A DNA stretch of 25,830 nt from an uncultured virus (IMG/VR IMGVR_UViG_3300028840_004242) (lineage: Duplodnaviria; Heunggongvirae; Uroviricota; Caudoviricetes): positions 62,001 to 87,830 of IMG/VR virus record IMGVR_UViG_3300028840_004242; one strand, written 5' to 3'. Position numbers and translations under genes: made by a program. Of this stretch, positions 7,545 to 21,276 are shown one piece after another (positions within the stretch are counted from its first letter, which is position 1; every line of letters begins with the position of its first letter). The notes beneath the pieces were generated by a model. It made no database searches. It was not told where the DNA came from and saw only the letters and a program-made list of their open reading frames with translations.

Positions 7545-7638
7545 TGTGTTTCTCTCTTAGTATGCGTCCTATTATTATACCTAATGGTATGCTGACGAGT
7601 ACCCACAAGGCTAGGACTATTATGATTTTAAGTACCAT
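7522..7638 (-). CDS. Small membrane protein (38 aa)
   Basis: Manual translation MVLKIIIVLALWVLVSIPLGIIIGRILREK..., one hydrophobic helix. Confidence 0.5.
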   Translation of the reverse strand: MVLKIIIVLALWVLVSIPLGIIIGRILREKHNETKTRL

Positions 7639-8086
7639 TTGCTACACATATCCTTCCTTTGTCATCGACTTTGATGTCCCATCCTTTGTTCTTTCTCAAG
7701 TCAGCTATTGTTCCACTGACCGCTACTTTGTTCTTCTTTAAGGGCCATGTCTCGTTCTTCATGTGCAACATTTCTGCCAACGTAACCGTGTCCCATATTC
7801 CTTCTTTTATCGCTTCGATGATTATACTGCGTCGGCTACCTGCACGGGAAGTAACTTTGTGGTAGTTGTTTTCAGTGATGCCAAACTGGGGGTCGATGTC
7901 AGGATTGTACTCTTCTGCGCTGGGGTTCTCTTTGTTGAGCTCTTTGAACCTGTCGTAGAGCTTTTGGATGATGTCCTTCTTTTTAAACTTAGCGGGGGGA
8001 GATTGCGTGAAGATTTTCTCGTACAGTGGTTTAAGGTGACTTAGGTTCTTTCCAGTCAAGTGGTTGAGGTACTCTTGATTAGTCAT
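7628..8086 (-). CDS. Putative DNA-binding protein with C-terminal winged-helix-like domain
   Basis: SRRSIIIEAIKE...VAVSGTIADL..WDIKVD; paralogous C-terminus in 15511..15981; has its own promoter. Confidence 0.7.
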   Translation of the reverse strand: MTNQEYLNHLTGKNLSHLKPLYEKIFTQSPPAKFKKKDIIQKLYDRFKELNKENPSAEEYNPDIDPQFGITENNYHKVTSRAGSRRSIIIEAIKEGIWDTVTLAEMLHMKNETWPLKKNKVAVSGTIADLRKNKGWDIKVDDKGRICVANGT

Positions 8087-12875: not shown

Positions 12876-12923
12876 TTTCATATTAATAATGTAATACATT
12901 TCATGTGGTTATACAAGATATTT
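12876..12923 (-). repeat. 48-bp exact direct repeat, copy 1 = promoter TTGTAT-17-TACATT
   Basis: Identical to 14196..14243. Confidence 0.9.
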
Positions 12924-14243: not shown

Positions 14244-14859
14244 CTTACACATACCCATAAAATTTATCACACCTATCCATTAAAAATTTCTAACAATTTC
14301 TCACTAATATTTTCTCACAAATTTCTCAGCAACCTAATCTTTTCTCACTAATCTTCTGACCACATCGACTCAACCACATCAGTAATCGTTCCACAAACCA
14401 TCCCACAACAAATAAGTACCACCAAAGGCCACCGTACCATATCAAACAAGCTAATTAATAAGTCCATCCCTATTCTTTCCTTTCCAATCCAAGTTAAAAG
14501 TTATACACTTCACATAGTACATAGTATAGCATAGTAAAAATGGAGAACAAGATAATACTCAGGTATATCCGTTTATAGCAGTAGCATCATGGGAAGGTGC
14601 GAATCGTGATAAGGATAGTATCTTTCCTTTAGTATCGCAGTAGTAGCTAAGAAACAAAGTAAATAAGGGTAGGTATAGCTTGATTGATTGTATCGAATCA
14701 TGGAGTGCATGGGGTGTGGCGACGAGCCCAGGTATGAGCAAGAGCAGATGTGAGTACGAAAGCATATAATCATCTACACCTATCCTGCCCACACAGTCTT
14801 AATCAATCATATCAACCCGCGCCTACCCTCTGATTGCATAGTTTAACGACTCACGCAGG

Positions 14860-15198
14860 TTTACGGGCAAGAGCAGAGCAGGGCGTGGGTGAGGAGCAGA
14901 GGCTTCGGGCTTCATGATTTAGATAGTATCAGACCAGACCACGCCTGCCCAGACCAGACCAGACCATGGGCTACGAATGGATTAGAATGGGACGATTGGG
15001 AGGCTGCGTGGGTGAGCGTGGATTAGATTGAATCACATCAGACCAGACCGCGCCAGACCAGACCGTGGGGGTAGGGGTGCAGGCTATGTGGGATCACGGG
15101 CGTATAGGGATCACGGTAGGTCATGGCTGGCGGAGGTATACGGGATGGCGGATATGGCGTGGTCTGGGGTGGAGGTCGGGCTTCATGGGTTGTATGGG
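14860..15198 (+). repeat. Non-coding G-rich block with AGACC pentamer arrays and G-tracts
   Basis: (AGACC)n clusters at about 14931-14965 and 15039-15064; GGGATCACGG x2; nine or more GGG runs. Confidence 0.75.
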
Positions 15199-15220
15199 TT
15201 TCAGTAAATATTGCATATTT

Positions 15221-15263
15221 ATTGCATGTAGTTTATTTATTTAATGAAGCATATTTAGTAAAT
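15221..15263 (+). repeat. Left arm of 43-bp inverted repeat
   Basis: 40/43 match to the reverse complement of 16780..16822. Confidence 0.85.
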
Positions 15264-15482
15264 TTGCTTCATTAAGTAAATAACACCGCTTCATCATTTT
15301 GCTTAAAAATAATACATGTATATGTAATTAATACATGTATTATTTTTATATACAGTTAGTTTAAAACTAAGTAAATAACTACACTATTAAAAAATAGTGT
15401 TGTTACAAGCAAAATAATTTCAGTTAGTAAATTAATTAATTTTGTCATGTTTTTAGCTTTCTTTTTTAGTTGTTTAAAATAT

Positions 15483-15500
15483 ACAGCTTGACTTGCTTGC
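15483..15500 (+). repeat. Left arm of 18-bp perfect inverted repeat
   Basis: ACAGCTTGACTTGCTTGC; partner at 16035..16052. Confidence 0.9.
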
Positions 15501-15510
15501 AAGTTATTGA

Positions 15511-15981
15511 CTACGCAAAAACTGAAATTATTTTGTCTGTTTCGTTGTCAATTTTAAATGTAGCTACGTTGTGTGTAGCTAGATCGTAAATTGTACCCGA
15601 AACCGCTTTCAAGTTATTTTTGTAGTCAGCAATTTCATGCTTTTCAGTCAATATGCTTGCAATTTCACGTTTCGTGAAATTGTTTTCTTTCAGCATGTCA
15701 ATAATAAGTTTTCTGCGTGACCTCTTATTATTACTTGCTTTCAGCGTATTGTCTGAAAGTTTGTAATTTCGTTTGACTTCAGTTTCTTTCTTTTCGCTGA
15801 AGTCAAACAGTTTAGCGTTGTCAGCGCTTACGTTGTCAACAAAGTCAGCTAAACTTGCTTTATGTTTTTTTAGCAAGTTAGTCAGCTTGTTTTTAGCTGT
15901 ACTTTTTTCGTTGTCAGTCGTTGCGCTGTCAACAAACATACTGTATAATTTACTTGCTTTGCTTTTTTCTTTACTTGTCAT
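15511..15981 (-). CDS. DUF2786-like N-terminal helical hairpin plus winged-helix-like protein
   Basis: KASKLYSM..SATTDNEKSTAKNKLTNLLKKH resembles DUF2786; SRRKLIIDMLKE..KAVSGTIYDL is paralogous to 7628..8086; has its own promoter. Confidence 0.75.
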   Translation of the reverse strand: MTSKEKSKASKLYSMFVDSATTDNEKSTAKNKLTNLLKKHKASLADFVDNVSADNAKLFDFSEKKETEVKRNYKLSDNTLKASNNKRSRRKLIIDMLKENNFTKREIASILTEKHEIADYKNNLKAVSGTIYDLATHNVATFKIDNETDKIISVFA

Positions 15982-16034
15982 AATGCACACTTCGCTTTTC
16001 TGCTATTATTTAAAATAGCTGTTAAAGAAATTAA

Positions 16035-16052
16035 GCAAGCAAGTCAAGCTGT
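16035..16052 (+). repeat. Right arm of 18-bp perfect inverted repeat
   Basis: GCAAGCAAGTCAAGCTGT. Confidence 0.9.
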
Positions 16053-16178
16053 CATTATAAGTAATACAATAAAGTATTGCAAATAAGTATAACGAAATTA
16101 ATATTTTAATTGCTTTTGACATAGTAATATTTTTTAGCGTCAAATAAGTTGTTAATTTTGTAGTTTGTAATACATAAA

Positions 16179-16207
16179 AGTCTATATACTTTTAAGTCTT
16201 TTGTCAA
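16179..16207 (-). promoter_or_regulatory. sigma70-type promoter TTGACA-17-TAGACT
   Basis: Enclosed by the 10-bp inverted repeat TACATAAAAG/CTTTTATGTA. Confidence 0.7.
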
Positions 16208-16393
16208 GTCTTTTATGTACTTTTTATTTTTTTGTTTCGCTGTCATGCTATTATATAAAGCAAGTTTCATGCACAATAGCATATATTTGCATATTTTTTT
16301 TAATTTATTTATAAGTACTTAATATCATTACAAATATAAATATAAATTTATTTCTTATATACTACATTGTAGTATATGCTATATACTGAAAAG

Positions 16394-16492
16394 TGACAAT
16401 TCACGTCACTTTTGACAATTTTTGTCAAAAAACGCTATAACATACTGTAATTATTAATAATATTACAATGTAGTATATGACAATTATTGTCA
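16394..16492. promoter_or_regulatory. Three TGACA-N5-YGTCA palindromic operators
   Basis: 16394..16408, 16413..16427 and 16478..16492; the second overlaps a plus-strand TTGACA-18-TATAAC. Confidence 0.65.
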
Positions 16493-16540
16493 ATATATAC
16501 TACAATGTATTACTGCTACAATGTAGCATTATATATACAC

Positions 16541-16644
16541 TATATTACTACATTACTATACTACTGTATTACTACATTACTATACTACTACATTACTATA
16601 CTACTGTATTACTACATTACTATACTACTACATAACTACATAAC
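16541..16644 (+). repeat. Octamer tandem array (13 x TRYAYWAC) with a 40-bp higher-order repeat
   Basis: Units TACATTAC, TATACTAC, TGTATTAC, TACATAAC; 16549..16588 equals 16589..16628. Confidence 0.9.
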
Positions 16645-16779
16645 TACAATAATATTTCTAAACAATATTTACTTATTATATATACATATAGTAAATATAT
16701 ATTAATACATTAATATAATACATAATAAATAAATGAAGCATATTTATTTATTATACATGCAATAACTAAGCCCCCACAC

Positions 16780-16822
16780 ATTTAATAAATATGCTTCATT
16801 AAATAAATAAATAACATGCAAT
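16780..16822 (+). repeat. Right arm of 43-bp inverted repeat
   Basis: Partner of 15221..15263. Confidence 0.85.
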
Positions 16823-17039
16823 ACAAACTACATTAATTGTAGTAAGCTACATTATTTGTAGTATGACAATTTACATTTTATTGCAACATTTATTAATTAC
16901 ATGCAACATGTGATAACTGAAGCCCCTTCAATAAACAAATGGGGTATACTTAATAAATGAGCATGGAGGCCCGACCATAAATTAGAATACCGAATTCACA
17001 CAACTTTAACGGAGGCCAATCCTGCATCGTATTTTCCAC

Positions 17040-17079: not shown

Positions 17080-17613
17080 ATGAACCTTCCCCAACTCATA
17101 AACCGCATACGCAATGGTGTGTATGAACTCATTAACACCCCTTCTAAGCAAACCGTGGTGCCCCAGGCCAAAGCAAAGATCAATCAAAACGTGCGCTTTG
17201 ACGACCACACCTTGCGAGAGCTCACCAGCAACGGAAAGCAAGTGTATATCGTGCAAGCAGCTCAAATCAACCTTCAACAGTCACTTACCAACGAAGGCAC
17301 CAAAGTGCTCACCTATATTGACCAACTACAAACCGCCTTAGAAGACCAAGCCCGTGACCAATCTCTATTCGAAATATTACTCCGTAAATATAATGAGGGA
17401 TGCACCTTGAAAACCATCCGCGACATCGTAGAGCGTTTATACATCGAGATTGCCCTTGCCAACACGCCTACGCAATCAGATGCCGCCCGTCGCCTTGGTA
17501 TTGCCCGCAGCGGCATATATGAGCGTCTAAAGCGCCTTACCTACGCCGAAGAGGCCGAACCAACCATGACAAAGGAGATCACCAAATGCGAGACACAGAA
17601 CTCTACCGACTGA
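17080..17613 (+). CDS. Fis/NtrC-type HTH (HTH_8) domain protein
   Basis: C-terminal VERLYIEIALANTPTQSDAARRLGIARSGIYERLKRL. Confidence 0.8.
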   Translation: MNLPQLINRIRNGVYELINTPSKQTVVPQAKAKINQNVRFDDHTLRELTSNGKQVYIVQAAQINLQQSLTNEGTKVLTYIDQLQTALEDQARDQSLFEILLRKYNEGCTLKTIRDIVERLYIEIALANTPTQSDAARRLGIARSGIYERLKRLTYAEEAEPTMTKEITKCETQNSTD

Positions 17614-18188
17614 CACCCACAAAGGGATACACTAAGGAAGGCCTACGCATGATCGCTATCGACGCGGTCAGAGACTGCGTAGGAGAGGACTGTCCTGTAT
17701 ACCAGAAATGTCCTTATAGCAAGAATGGAAAGTGCAGCGTGGAGACTGGGTATATCAGTGCCGTTATGGACAGCTACTATGATTTGATTAAGAAGGATAT
17801 GAACCAAGAACTACTCAACGCCTTCACCCTGCGCCTGCTGCCACTGTTCCATCAGCTTGTGCGCTTCCAGATATTCGCCTACAGCGTTCAGGAGGTGTGC
17901 TACGTCACCTCCCGAGGGTTGCTAAAGATGCACCCCGTATTTAAAGAGATAAGGGAAACCATCCGCTCCATTGAGGCTACGCAGAAGTCCATTGGGTTGG
18001 AAGGAGAGTATATACGTGCTCTTGGTAACCTTAAGCAGCCAGGCATACTGCCTAGAGACCGAGAGGATGCTGAAGAGGTGCCTGGAGGTGCTAATTGGCG
18101 TGAGCAGTGGAACAAAAAGTACTTTGATCAGAACTTAGGACTGCGTGAGCCTAATGAAAGACCCACATTGAGGAGGGCGGCGAAGTGA
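17586..18188 (+). CDS. terS: Probable terminase small subunit with Cys cluster
   Basis: GLLKMHPVFKEIRETIRSIEATQKSIGL resembles the P27-family TerS C-terminus; AAGGAG RBS; upstream of TerL. Confidence 0.6.
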   Translation: MRDTELYRLTPTKGYTKEGLRMIAIDAVRDCVGEDCPVYQKCPYSKNGKCSVETGYISAVMDSYYDLIKKDMNQELLNAFTLRLLPLFHQLVRFQIFAYSVQEVCYVTSRGLLKMHPVFKEIRETIRSIEATQKSIGLEGEYIRALGNLKQPGILPRDREDAEEVPGGANWREQWNKKYFDQNLGLREPNERPTLRRAAK

Positions 18189-18463
18189 TGGAGGTCAAGA
18201 AATGTGGATGCAAGGATTGGGAAGAGAACATAAACCTTATTAATGCACCATGGACATTGCCGTTAACCATAGTAGGGAAGTATGAAGGGAAAGAGTTTGA
18301 ATACTGTCCCTGGTGTGGAGGTAAGTTGTGGACTACTTATAAAGTAGAGTATGGTAATTGTAGTAGTCCAAAATGTACGTGTGGCACATCAGAGTTTAAG
18401 AAGTCTACTGTTGGGTGTCCAGTGCATGGCATTTACGAGTGGGGGTATAAGGAGAACTACTAA
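18185..18463 (+). CDS. Cys-rich Zn-finger protein
   Basis: CGC..W, EYCPWCGGKL, CTCG..CPVHG. Confidence 0.65.
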   Translation: MMEVKKCGCKDWEENINLINAPWTLPLTIVGKYEGKEFEYCPWCGGKLWTTYKVEYGNCSSPKCTCGTSEFKKSTVGCPVHGIYEWGYKENY

Positions 18464-18660
18464 TGCCACGCCGATCACATAATATAAAGCGCCGTATGGA
18501 GGGTAGGTGTATAGATTGTGGTGCTATGGCAGAGTATGGGAAGGTGAGATGTGAAAAATGCTTGGTGGAACAGAGGGTTAAAAAGAGGGCTAGCTATGAT
18601 GAAAAAAAGCGCATAGCAAAGCATACAAGCAATAGAAATCTTTTAAAATTCAACAGATGA
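18463..18660 (+). CDS. Small basic Zn-finger protein
   Basis: GRCIDCG...RCEKC; AAGGAG RBS. Confidence 0.6.
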   Translation: MPRRSHNIKRRMEGRCIDCGAMAEYGKVRCEKCLVEQRVKKRASYDEKKRIAKHTSNRNLLKFNR

Positions 18661-18675
18661 GAGGGGGTAAAAATT

Positions 18676-18864
18676 ATGGCTAACAATGATTTAAACGTCA
18701 AGTTGCAGGTGACAGAGGACAATATAGAGCACATGTTGAATGGATTGGAAGAGTACAGTGGACTAGAAGTTAAGGATATAGGATTGCTGAGAAATGAGAA
18801 GGGCAAGCTGAAGGCTATAATTGTAATGTGGAGAGGGAAAGGTGCAAAATCTAAAGAAGATTAA
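18676..18864 (+). CDS. Hypothetical protein
   Basis: GAGGGGG RBS. Confidence 0.55.
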   Translation: MANNDLNVKLQVTEDNIEHMLNGLEEYSGLEVKDIGLLRNEKGKLKAIIVMWRGKGAKSKED

Positions 18865-19405
18865 AAAATGGCTGATTAAGAACGTAGCCGACATCCGTCT
18901 CTATAAAGGTGGCGTTATACTCTTCGGCGACAGCCACTACCGTATGAAGGGGGAGGACGTGAGAGATATCCTGAACTCCTTGCAGAAGGGAGATGTGCTG
19001 TTGCGAAGGTATGATCATTATTTAGGAGGTATGCTAACACCTGGCTACTTCACCCATGCCGCTATTTATGTTGGGGATAACAGAGTGATTCACATGTTAG
19101 GTGAAGGTATATGTAGTGAGGACATCCTTACGTTCTGCCGCTGTGACCACGTTGCTGTGCTGAGGCATGTTGGTGCCCACTATCCTCGATACCAAGCTGT
19201 AAAGAAGGCATTCGCATTTCTGGAAAAACATGTACAGTATGATTACGAGTTTGAGAGTGAAGATGAAGAGTTTTACTGTACTGAGTTTGTATGGGAATGT
19301 TATGGCAGACCTCCCGATCTCTACTTTGATAAATATATACTGCCTGATGACTTCTTAGCTTCGGTTAGCATATTTGAATTGGTAATAAGGAGACCTTCTC
19401 CATGA
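18842..19405 (+). CDS. YiiX/YaeF-like permuted papain-like (NlpC/P60 superfamily) enzyme
   Basis: LQKGDVLL, GYFTHAAIYVGD, YDYEF..FYCTEFVW (His before Cys). Confidence 0.85.
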   Translation: MQNLKKIKKWLIKNVADIRLYKGGVILFGDSHYRMKGEDVRDILNSLQKGDVLLRRYDHYLGGMLTPGYFTHAAIYVGDNRVIHMLGEGICSEDILTFCRCDHVAVLRHVGAHYPRYQAVKKAFAFLEKHVQYDYEFESEDEEFYCTEFVWECYGRPPDLYFDKYILPDDFLASVSIFELVIRRPSP

Positions 19406-21276
19406 CAGTAAAAAGAGCGAGTAGAATCAAAGCAGCAGATCACGAAGTGGTAACATATCAGGATGGAGCCGAAGGGTGTATTCGCTTCTGTGAGGATCAT
19501 GTAAGGGTTCCTATTTTCATAGACAAAATGGAGTACTGGTGCCCCCTAAGTGATCTACCTGACACACCTAATCCCAAGACTAAGCGTTCCTACAAAGAGA
19601 TGTGGGAAAGGCAGAAGGATATATTAAGGGAATGTCTAGCGATGGATGAGGAAGGTTATTTCCTCTACAGGCAGATAGTGTTTTGTTGGATGAGAGGTGA
19701 AGGTAAATCACTAATAGTCTGCCTTATAATAATCTGGAAGTTTATGGCATTCTCCCGCCAGAAGATCATGCTAGGGGCTAATAGTAGAGACCAAGTTAAG
19801 TTCGTTCATTATGATATTATACGGGATATCATTCTCCACAGCCCATCGTTGTTAGCACTAATTGGTAAGAATAATATCCAAGAAAAAGAAATCAGATTGA
19901 AGGAAGACCCTGACGATCCTAAGAGTAAGGACATAGATTGTATCATCCGCAGCGTTGGTACCTTTACTGGTATACTTTCTAATATAACAGCCTACTCATT
20001 CAGTGAAATGTTTGATATGAAGAATCCAAGGTTCTATGTACAGCTAGATGGTAGTATTAGAAATATACCTAATGCGTTTGGCTTAATCGACTCAACCGTG
20101 TCAGATAAGACCCATGTACTCTATAATTTATATAAAGAATGGAAAGCAGGAAACCTGCGAAATGTCTACTTCAGCTATAGGTGCTCGAGAAGTGCAGATT
20201 CGGAAGATTATTGGAACCCTCTTATGGATGAGGATCAACTTAATGACTATAAAGTCAAATTTCCTTTTGGAGAGTTTGAGAGATATTTTCAGAACCTCTG
20301 GGAGGCTGGAACTGTACGGGTTTTTACAGATGAAATGATTGAGGAAATGGGTTACATCGGTGTAGATAATGGATTTTTAAATCATGATGAAATACAAACG
20401 GCTATTAGAAGAAAGTATGAGTTGATTGCTAGAGCGGAGGATACTGCTGGTAAAGGATTTAACGAAGGGGCGGCAGCTGATTGGGAAAGAGTAGCTCTTA
20501 TAGATAGTAAGTTTAGAAAGGTAGAGTCCCTTTTCACCCTTGAAGGTCCTTTTGTAGATAGTCCACCTTCGGTTTCTACGTTGCAGTTCCTTTCTGATAT
20601 TTTTGATACTGATTGGGCTTTACTTACTGGACTTGACATGGCAGATCCTACTGCTGTGCATGGACAAGCTCGCACCATTTTCTGTGCTGTGCTTAAGGGA
20701 CTGGCAGGAAGCCGCAGTAATCCTTTCCATGAAACTATTGAAATACCAGATATGAAGTATATCTACATATTGATATTCCTGACAAGTATTCAGAATCAAG
20801 ATATCAATATTGTTAAACGTCTAATGGACGAAATGGATACAGAATATGATGGAATTGATGCATTCTGCAGCGAGCGCTACGGGTCCTGGGATATGGTTCA
20901 GTGGTGCGAGGATCGAGATATTTTCTTCGAACCTATCTTTCCTAATTACGACCGACAACGGGAAGCATTTAAAGAGTTTTATAATGTTGCCCGTGAGGGT
21001 AGATTTAAATGCCCACCAATCCATGTGGTCGGAAGTAAACGGGTCGATGTTTTACGTGAAGAGCTGTCAGTCTTTGATCATGATCCCATTAAGCGATGGT
21101 TCGGAAGTCCAGAAAAGACTGAAAAGGGAGGAATACAGGACGATTCCGTGTATAGTGTGGGATGGTGTTTATACGGAGGTCGTATGCTCGGACCTGACTC
21201 TTTTAGAATCAGAAAGTCAATGACTAGCTTTGGAACATTCATTCAAGGCACAGGAATCGTAGGGGATTATACTTGA
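19402..21276 (+). CDS. terL: Terminase large subunit
   Basis: WERQKDIL, Walker A WMRGEGKS, coupling motif IDST, FERYFQNLW, nuclease TGLDMAD and QDDSVYS. Confidence 0.9.
   Translation: MTVKRASRIKAADHEVVTYQDGAEGCIRFCEDHVRVPIFIDKMEYWCPLSDLPDTPNPKTKRSYKEMWERQKDILRECLAMDEEGYFLYRQIVFCWMRGEGKSLIVCLIIIWKFMAFSRQKIMLGANSRDQVKFVHYDIIRDIILHSPSLLALIGKNNIQEKEIRLKEDPDDPKSKDIDCIIRSVGTFTGILSNITAYSFSEMFDMKNPRFYVQLDGSIRNIPNAFGLIDSTVSDKTHVLYNLYKEWKAGNLRNVYFSYRCSRSADSEDYWNPLMDEDQLNDYKVKFPFGEFERYFQNLWEAGTVRVFTDEMIEEMGYIGVDNGFLNHDEIQTAIRRKYELIARAEDTAGKGFNEGAAADWERVALIDSKFRKVESLFTLEGPFVDSPPSVSTLQFLSDIFDTDWALLTGLDMADPTAVHGQARTIFCAVLKGLAGSRSNPFHETIEIPDMKYIYILIFLTSIQNQDINIVKRLMDEMDTEYDGIDAFCSERYGSWDMVQWCEDRDIFFEPIFPNYDRQREAFKEFYNVAREGRFKCPPIHVVGSKRVDVLREELSVFDHDPIKRWFGSPEKTEKGGIQDDSVYSVGWCLYGGRMLGPDSFRIRKSMTSFGTFIQGTGIVGDYT

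Follow-up and report, generated by a model that had tools for sequence, protein, structure and literature searches.

The genome of an uncultured phage (G000; record of 87.8 kb with an end overlap of 144 nt) contains a stretch of about 1.6 kb from which a set of short words has been purged on both strands. This island occupies positions 15200..16770 of the window, i.e. the whole 25,830-nt stretch of DNA analysed here (bases 62001-87830 of the record). It lacks GG/CC, GAT/ATC, GAG/CTC and GAAY/RTTC, and retains GAC, GAAR and GC. It is a real, highly non-random and recurrent feature, and similar islands are found in relatives of the phage. We favour, with moderate confidence and judging from sequence, the reading that guanine marks made by the phage itself are kept out of the island, letting a first gene or a genome end work as ordinary DNA.

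Extent of the purge and the gene inside it

Compared with expectations corrected for base content (p 6e-16 for GG, 4e-19 for GAT), the island has 5 GG/CC vs 50 expected, 4 GAT/ATC vs 55, 1 GAG/CTC vs 19 and 1 GAAY vs 28, while GAC (35 vs 19) and GAAR (37 vs 28) are kept; the purged words together cover ~41% of all G. The purge fades by ~16920 on the right side, and a scan of the whole 87.8-kb genome found no other stretch so purged. A sequence-only reading had described avoidance of GG, GAT and GAG in 15511..16324. This avoidance holds there, but the island is wider (~15200-16770) and GAAC and GAAT are missing as well. The non-coding part (15982-16770) is depleted to the same degree (GG 0 vs 18, GAT 1 vs 26), and the purge is therefore a DNA-level effect.

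The island contains one small gene, at 15511..15981 on the minus strand, encoding a 156-aa basic protein with a predicted N-terminal helical hairpin (DUF2786-like) and a predicted C-terminal winged-helix-like domain. Its composition is as the earlier reading had given it, with Asp encoded by 11 GAC and 1 GAT, Glu by 10 GAA and no GAG, and one Gly, zero Pro and zero Trp in the protein, which additionally lacks Gln and Cys. Relative to the 77 other ORFs of the genome, both codon biases stand out (GAT/GAC, p=1.8e-4; GAG/GAA, p=0.007), as does the content of Gly+Pro+Trp (1 vs 18 expected, p=9e-8). Seven forbidden words remain in the gene, compared with a mean of 48 and a minimum of 28 in 5000 rounds of synonymous re-sampling. 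As had been noticed, all seven lie within the SRR and AVSGTIYDL motifs or next to them (at K86-R87, A126-V127, S128-G129 and D133), and among them the protein forces only G129. S88, R89, R90 and G129 are invariant across 41 homologues.

The homologues, which begin at the ATG of this gene, show how far the protein itself demands such a composition. Pro and Trp are absent from all 17 close homologues (55-79%); among the distant ones (n=34), 11 have exactly one Gly+Pro+Trp residue and 21 have 7-23, so that the family need not be devoid of these amino acids. Together with the equally purged non-coding DNA, the 21/34 distant homologues that keep Gly, Pro and Trp support the proposal that DNA words outrank amino-acid choice. 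A paralog outside the island (7628..8086, minus strand; 30% over 86 aa) has 1 GAT and 8 GAC, yet contains 8 Gly, 7 Pro, 3 Trp and 6 GAG. The GAC bias outside islands that the earlier reading had named as a counter-argument is thus found, but the loss of Gly, Pro, Trp and GAG is not, and the Asp bias alone is not diagnostic because the paralog shares it.

This paralog is also what can be said for ordinary composition, in which the gene would simply be rich in AT, highly expressed and coding for a helical protein, as are the false positives produced by low-complexity ORFs: candidate islands in G027 and G031 (Ala-rich ORFs), in G047 (a pentapeptide repeat) and in a Ser/Thr-repeat ORF of G000 were all rejected. 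Such an origin is extremely improbable and is refuted by the re-sampling, which never fell below 28 words against the 7 seen, as well as by the base-corrected p values and the purged non-coding DNA.

In residues 85-156, where a three-helix plus wing fold would be expected, the structure model of the island protein (pLDDT 90) has helices at 89-99, 104-113 and 120-136 and two strands. Its fold matches are mostly winged-helix but weak (best Z 6.7; none with E<=0.001 or Z>=8). DUF2786 was matched in 9 of the 41 homologues. Searches of PHROGs, Pfam and NCBIfam gave no name or assignment, and the single Atlas match, at 0.80, is to an entry without a name. The protein is presumed to be a first-expressed DNA-binding regulator.

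Host restriction-modification, which the earlier reading had implied as the cause, does not account well for the words that remain. Many restriction sites contain GG/CC, GAT/ATC or GAG/CTC, and the island has one GATC and no GGCC, CCGG or TCGA. Palindromes are nevertheless retained or enriched (AGCT 10 vs 3.8, CATG 12 vs 3.8, TGCA 12 vs 3.8), with GTAC (4), ACGT (4) and five G/C-containing 6-mer palindromes also present. Moreover, escape from sites of 4-8 bp needs no loss of whole dinucleotides, T5 and T7 have no such desert, and two related islands, described below, are rich in GATC and GATATC. Loss of restriction sites from leading regions is already published, for Autographiviridae, as the available part of PMC12455610 documents. 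However, the persistence of AGCT, CATG, TGCA and GTAC makes host restriction a weak explanation, and classical avoidance of many host sites in first-injected DNA, in the style of T5 or T7, is very unlikely here.

Expression signals, borders and genome setting

The Shine-Dalgarno position of the gene (15989..16000, minus strand) reads AAAAGCGAAGTG and, as had been claimed, is free of GG. Upstream, three sigma-70-like promoters were found on the minus strand by consensus match: TTGCAA-17-TATAAT, closest to the gene (16054..16082); AAAAGAC-TTGACA-17-TAGACT, without TATC (16179..16214); and TTGTCA-17-TATACT (16371..16399). The second is the promoter at 16207 that the sequence-only reading had set apart from other leftward promoters; TATCTTG indeed occurs nine times on the minus strand, seven of them preceding an evident -10 box. 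This reading of the promoter stands, with the correction that there are two further sites (16082 and 16399) and that the count of promoter-like sites (11) does not exceed that of shuffles (15.9). Elsewhere in the window, the leftward promoters at 12920 and 14240 are identical over ~45 nt, and assemblies break at both.

A perfect 18-nt inverted repeat flanks the gene, its left arm at 15483..15500 (plus strand) and its right arm inside the 5' leader at 16035..16052 (minus strand); with up to 3 mismatches allowed, these are the only two copies in the genome. At the left border of the island (15220..15283), a local hairpin accompanies one arm of a 47-nt inverted repeat, whose partner arm (16777-16823) lies at the right border (16723..16823) together with a local inverted repeat. 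Towards the right border lie three TGACAAT...TGTCA-type palindromes (16394..16492) and an AT-rich 8-bp tandem repeat on the plus strand (16515..16678), which is an assembly breakpoint. The 18-nt repeat and the border repeats are, from their sequence, candidate binding sites for the island protein. A contig from another run matches 15213-15347 without a difference; its remaining matching pieces diverge by ~10%.

The early genes lie on one side of the island and the terminase on the other. Leftward genes for early functions and replication descend from ~16000, and the rightward block with the terminase, portal and protease genes begins at 17080-19402. The large terminase subunit (19402..21276, plus strand), for which no cultured phage match was found, is the landmark adjoining the islands of relatives; it is preceded by a conserved ORF (17586..18188, plus strand), taken from its position to be the small subunit. 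A 177-aa ORF with a Fis-type HTH (17080-17613) lies between the island and the terminase genes. On the other side, a GC- and GG-rich non-coding region with AGACCAGACC repeats (14700-15200) abuts the left border. Two further genes were recorded outside the window. A family A DNA polymerase (G000:C1:49746-52388; L004:3746-6388) has an N-terminal uracil-DNA-glycosylase-like domain. A 1651-aa ORF made up mostly of Ser/Thr/Tyr repeats and mucin-like in character (G000:C1:32552-37504; L003:552-5504) lies downstream of a glycosyltransferase/methyltransferase/sulfotransferase gene cluster (G000 19311-28540) and may form a glycosylated fibre of the virion.

Between 14214 and 16575 the contigs have a depth of 27, compared with 16 rightward and 9-14 leftward, in two runs that resemble one data set and with contigs that cannot show ends. 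This step hints weakly at a terminal repeat or at a packaging start. Over-sequencing of unmodified DNA was considered as its source and set aside, being inseparable from terminal redundancy.

These borders and depths bear on local mutation pressure, whereby a marked G would be excised or miscopied (for instance, in a terminal repeat that host enzymes repair or copy) and words would erode unless the protein forbids it. The clustering of leftover sites where the protein is most conserved and the partial islands of some relatives (G023, G024 and G059) agree with such erosion, as do host glycosylases that excise deazaguanine from DNA, whose existence is reported in the available part of 10.1101/2025.10.29.685425. 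On the other hand, the island has sharp borders that fall on inverted repeats enclosing a single transcription unit, the GG-rich region at 14700-15200 falls within the same high-depth contig as the island, and the genes of one related island (G044, below) have lost five amino acids entirely and yet remain open. Mutation pressure is improbable, although less so than restriction avoidance.

Modification genes and islands in other phages

The genes that suggest a self-made mark lie at G000 54495-61470, which encodes DpdA, a glycosyltransferase-like protein, a radical SAM enzyme, a DpdL-motif protein, FolE, QueE and QueD; gene searches of G000 gave no match to QueC. The phage thus has the genes of a DpdA system, namely DpdA, the precursor genes FolE, QueD and QueE and, by motif, the DpdL route. 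Its DpdA (gene at 54495-55679) is 34.5% identical to that of CAjan (E 1e-33), has TGT as top Foldseek matches (E about 1e-3), matches NCBIfam DpdA weakly (E 0.0026, below the cut-off) and is, among cultured phages, nearest to the motif-specific CAjan type. The motif LxxxHRHxF, given as that of DpdL in section 15 of 10.1101/2023.04.13.536721, is present at G000 58267-58614. The available part of the same source links FolE, QueD, QueE and DpdL without QueC to 7-deazaguanine in phiST, and ties the DpdA3 of phiST to complete replacement of G. G000 shares this gene set and motif, but its DpdA is nearest to the CAjan type rather than DpdA3. Measured DpdA targets, according to the available parts of the respective papers, are GA and GGC in CAjan (PMC7544227) and strictly GA in iggy (PMC10484667). 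G000 resembles these two phages in its DpdA homologue (34%), its FolE, QueD and QueE and its putative G-first target words, and differs from them in having no QueC match and, instead, a DpdL-like gene, a radical SAM enzyme and a glycosyltransferase. The pathway genes, together with the fact that measured targets are G-first words, support an avoidance of own marks; the DNA of G000 would then be modified, and the purged words would be the targets of its enzyme.

Related islands were sought in a scan of terminase loci covering 61 loci of family A and 58 of the 80 of family B, those with little sequence upstream of the terminase being left out. Upstream, deserts were found in 15/61 family-A loci (13 of GG/CC, including this phage, and 2 of GC) and G-first deserts in 7/58 family-B loci, 3 of the 7 by construction since the family was seeded with three island-bearing genomes. 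Downstream, there was one GC match and none for GG, GA or GT. Matches for GC only, CG or TA were excluded from the association table because they are also present in controls. The islands of relatives occupy the same place but purge differing G-first words (GG; GG+GA; GT+GC+GAA+GAG), and genes inside the GG-purged ones are devoid of Gly, Pro and Trp. Both the position upstream but not downstream of the terminase and the differing sets argue for marks that each phage makes itself.

The most extreme case is G044, with an island of >2 kb (L290:1-2700) in which GG (0/63) and GA (0/112) are absent and three ORFs do without Gly, Pro, Trp, Asp and Glu, their reading frames still open. Another island without GG or GA, as in G044, is seen at L349:5821-8940. 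The islands of G032 and G041 purge GT, GC, GAA and GAG, are rich in GG, in GATC (23 vs 2.4 expected) and in GATATC, and are a near-complement of the G000 island. Conversely, G076, whose DpdA is closest to that of G000, purges the same four words (GAAY 0 vs 15), as expected if the words follow the enzyme; G023 and G024 have orthologous genes and partial islands. In a quick IQ-TREE result, these four phages of the GG+GAT type (G000, G076, G023 and G024) form one DpdA clade with a support of 90, a match that is not evidence of co-evolution because kin share enzyme and island alike. In profile searches, most proteins from the islands of other GG-free phages showed no homology to the 156-aa protein, and no common cargo family was found; L388 and L389 carry an identical protein. 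At L129:5201-7240 (G012), a 2-kb GC-free island upstream of the terminase covers a 425-aa ORF, and dpdA was not found in that record (63% complete).

Several observations weaken the case for own marks. In G059, the DpdA sister of the GG+GA-free G044, the loss of GA is only partial. Two islands of ~2 kb upstream of the terminase are free of TG/CA, which is not G-first (L326:7281-9080, 1 vs 62; L638:2001-4220, 0 vs 62), and no modifying enzyme was seen in the L326 fragment. Loss of GAAY without GAAR or GAC fits no measured DpdA motif, and every G-first word equals a C-last word on the opposite strand.

In cultured phages, the match of a depleted word to the measured DpdA motif is seen in iggy and weakly in CAjan. 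The sole flagged window of iggy (60041-60580) has 8 GA vs 62, keeps GG and is non-coding, between divergent gene arms; the whole GA-depleted junction extends over 59980-60628 (L424:27980-28628). The loss of its own DpdA word, with GG kept, supports the favoured reading, although the iggy island is non-coding and that of G000 takes in a complete gene and changes the amino acids it encodes. In CAjan, GA+GGC reaches its minimum in an intergenic window (18 vs 40). The 9 remaining cultured dpdA phages have no GG, GA or GT ratio <0.39, leaving iggy as the only one of 11 with a strong island. Of whole-scanned dpdA records, 9/37 have a strong GG/GA/GT island, so that most dpdA phages are without one, and the association is not significant (Fisher tests, 9/37 vs 0/9, p=0.11; 10/46 vs 0/11, p=0.09, both computed before RHEph10 and SSU5 joined the set).

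Controls were largely devoid of such deserts. No desert of GG, GA or GT was found in 8 cultured genomes negative for dpdA, T5, T7 and SPO1 among them (lowest ratio 0.47), nor in 77 T7-like leading regions and 51 other terminase loci, and SSU5, scanned over the first 100 of its 103.3 kb, lacks both dpdA and an island; these absences speak in favour of own marks. The exception, which speaks against them, is RHEph10, an unrelated Rhizobium phage in culture whose complete genome has a GG/CC-free island of 1.15 kb at 98833-99982 (L643:48833-49982), in which dpdA, folE, queD and queE were not detected and no known base-modifying family occurs among the 30/172 annotated features scanned. Like the G000 island, that of RHEph10 covers small genes with ~1.1 kb free of GG/CC; it differs in the undetected dpdA pathway, in lying ~11 kb from the terminase and in showing no depletion of GA. 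A ParB-ParB-ATPase gene cluster is located 6-9 kb from it. Word deserts consequently do not need DpdA, and, the two TG/CA-purged loci also considered, there is at least one further cause or enzyme behind them.

RHEph10 also lends weight to a host factor, such as a CRISPR system with CC/NGG PAMs or an unknown defence enzyme, that would recognise GG/CC, along with some GA/TC words, as DNA comes in and would select for a first-entering cassette free of them, dpdA then being incidental. GG/CC is the commonest purged word (13/15 family-A islands), CC/GG are purged from the G000 island, and the depth step suggests a genome end there. Yet in iggy GG/CC persists and the word lost is that of its own DpdA, the islands of G032 and G041 are GG-rich, and the 77 T7-like leading regions show no GG desert. 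Among the other PAMs, TTC and AAG are those of types I-C and I-E, and both remain in the island (GAA/TTC 39 vs 55, AAG/CTT 68 vs 55). Such a reader is unlikely, though it is the strongest of the rivals.

A proposed unmarked unit

Under the favoured reading, the avoidance of own marks, the phage DpdA would swap G for a 7-deazaguanine base at short words defined by their 3' context, and the neighbouring radical-SAM and glycosyltransferase genes would perhaps add further groups to this base. A single unit of 1.6 kb, presumably located at the genome end or close to it and purged of GG, GAT, GAG and GAAY on both strands, would stay unmarked. It carries the presumed first-transcribed gene, host-type promoters and AT-rich repeats, may be the part that enters first, and its winged-helix protein would start the infection programme. 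Candidates for the gain are access of the host RNA polymerase, recognition of an origin or by the terminase, and escape from modification-dependent defence. Transcription of the first gene by the host polymerase is favoured, since the coding strand, the Shine-Dalgarno stretch and the promoters all lie inside the purge, and the deazaguanine-attacking host glycosylases mentioned above could be the reason why an unmarked first segment pays. The marking mechanism is plausible but unproven.

As for precedents, the first-step-transfer DNA of T5 (identified from the annotation of the T5 record) and the leading regions of Autographiviridae are alike in that a word is missing from probable first-entering DNA and present elsewhere in the genome. 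They differ in that specific longer sites are lost, whereas G000 loses di- and trinucleotides and keeps common palindromes. The available parts of PMC7544227 and PMC10484667 make no mention of motif-free regions in CAjan or iggy, and a literature search that covered subscription journals thinly found no paper on deserts of kilobase length in which a phage lacks the motif that it modifies itself; 10.64898/2025.12.19.695335 was of no relevance here.

The broader proposal that self-marking phages reserve a start-up cassette without marks at the end of the genome, at a cost of up to five amino acids, is evenly balanced. If true, base modification would be costly, phages paying by leaving one unit unmarked, and this unit would reveal which infection step requires ordinary DNA. 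The missing words would be a direct read-out of enzyme specificity from sequence alone, predicting new DpdA specificities (GG/GAT/GAG/GAAY, or ~41% of G; GG+GA; GT+GC+GAA+GAG), and deserts of GG/CC or TG/CA in dpdA-less phages would be signs of marking enzymes yet to be discovered. It would thereby become possible to predict, in uncultured phages, which words a DNA-modifying enzyme targets, providing a search handle for new enzymes, and the island proteins are natural cases of a reduced amino-acid alphabet.
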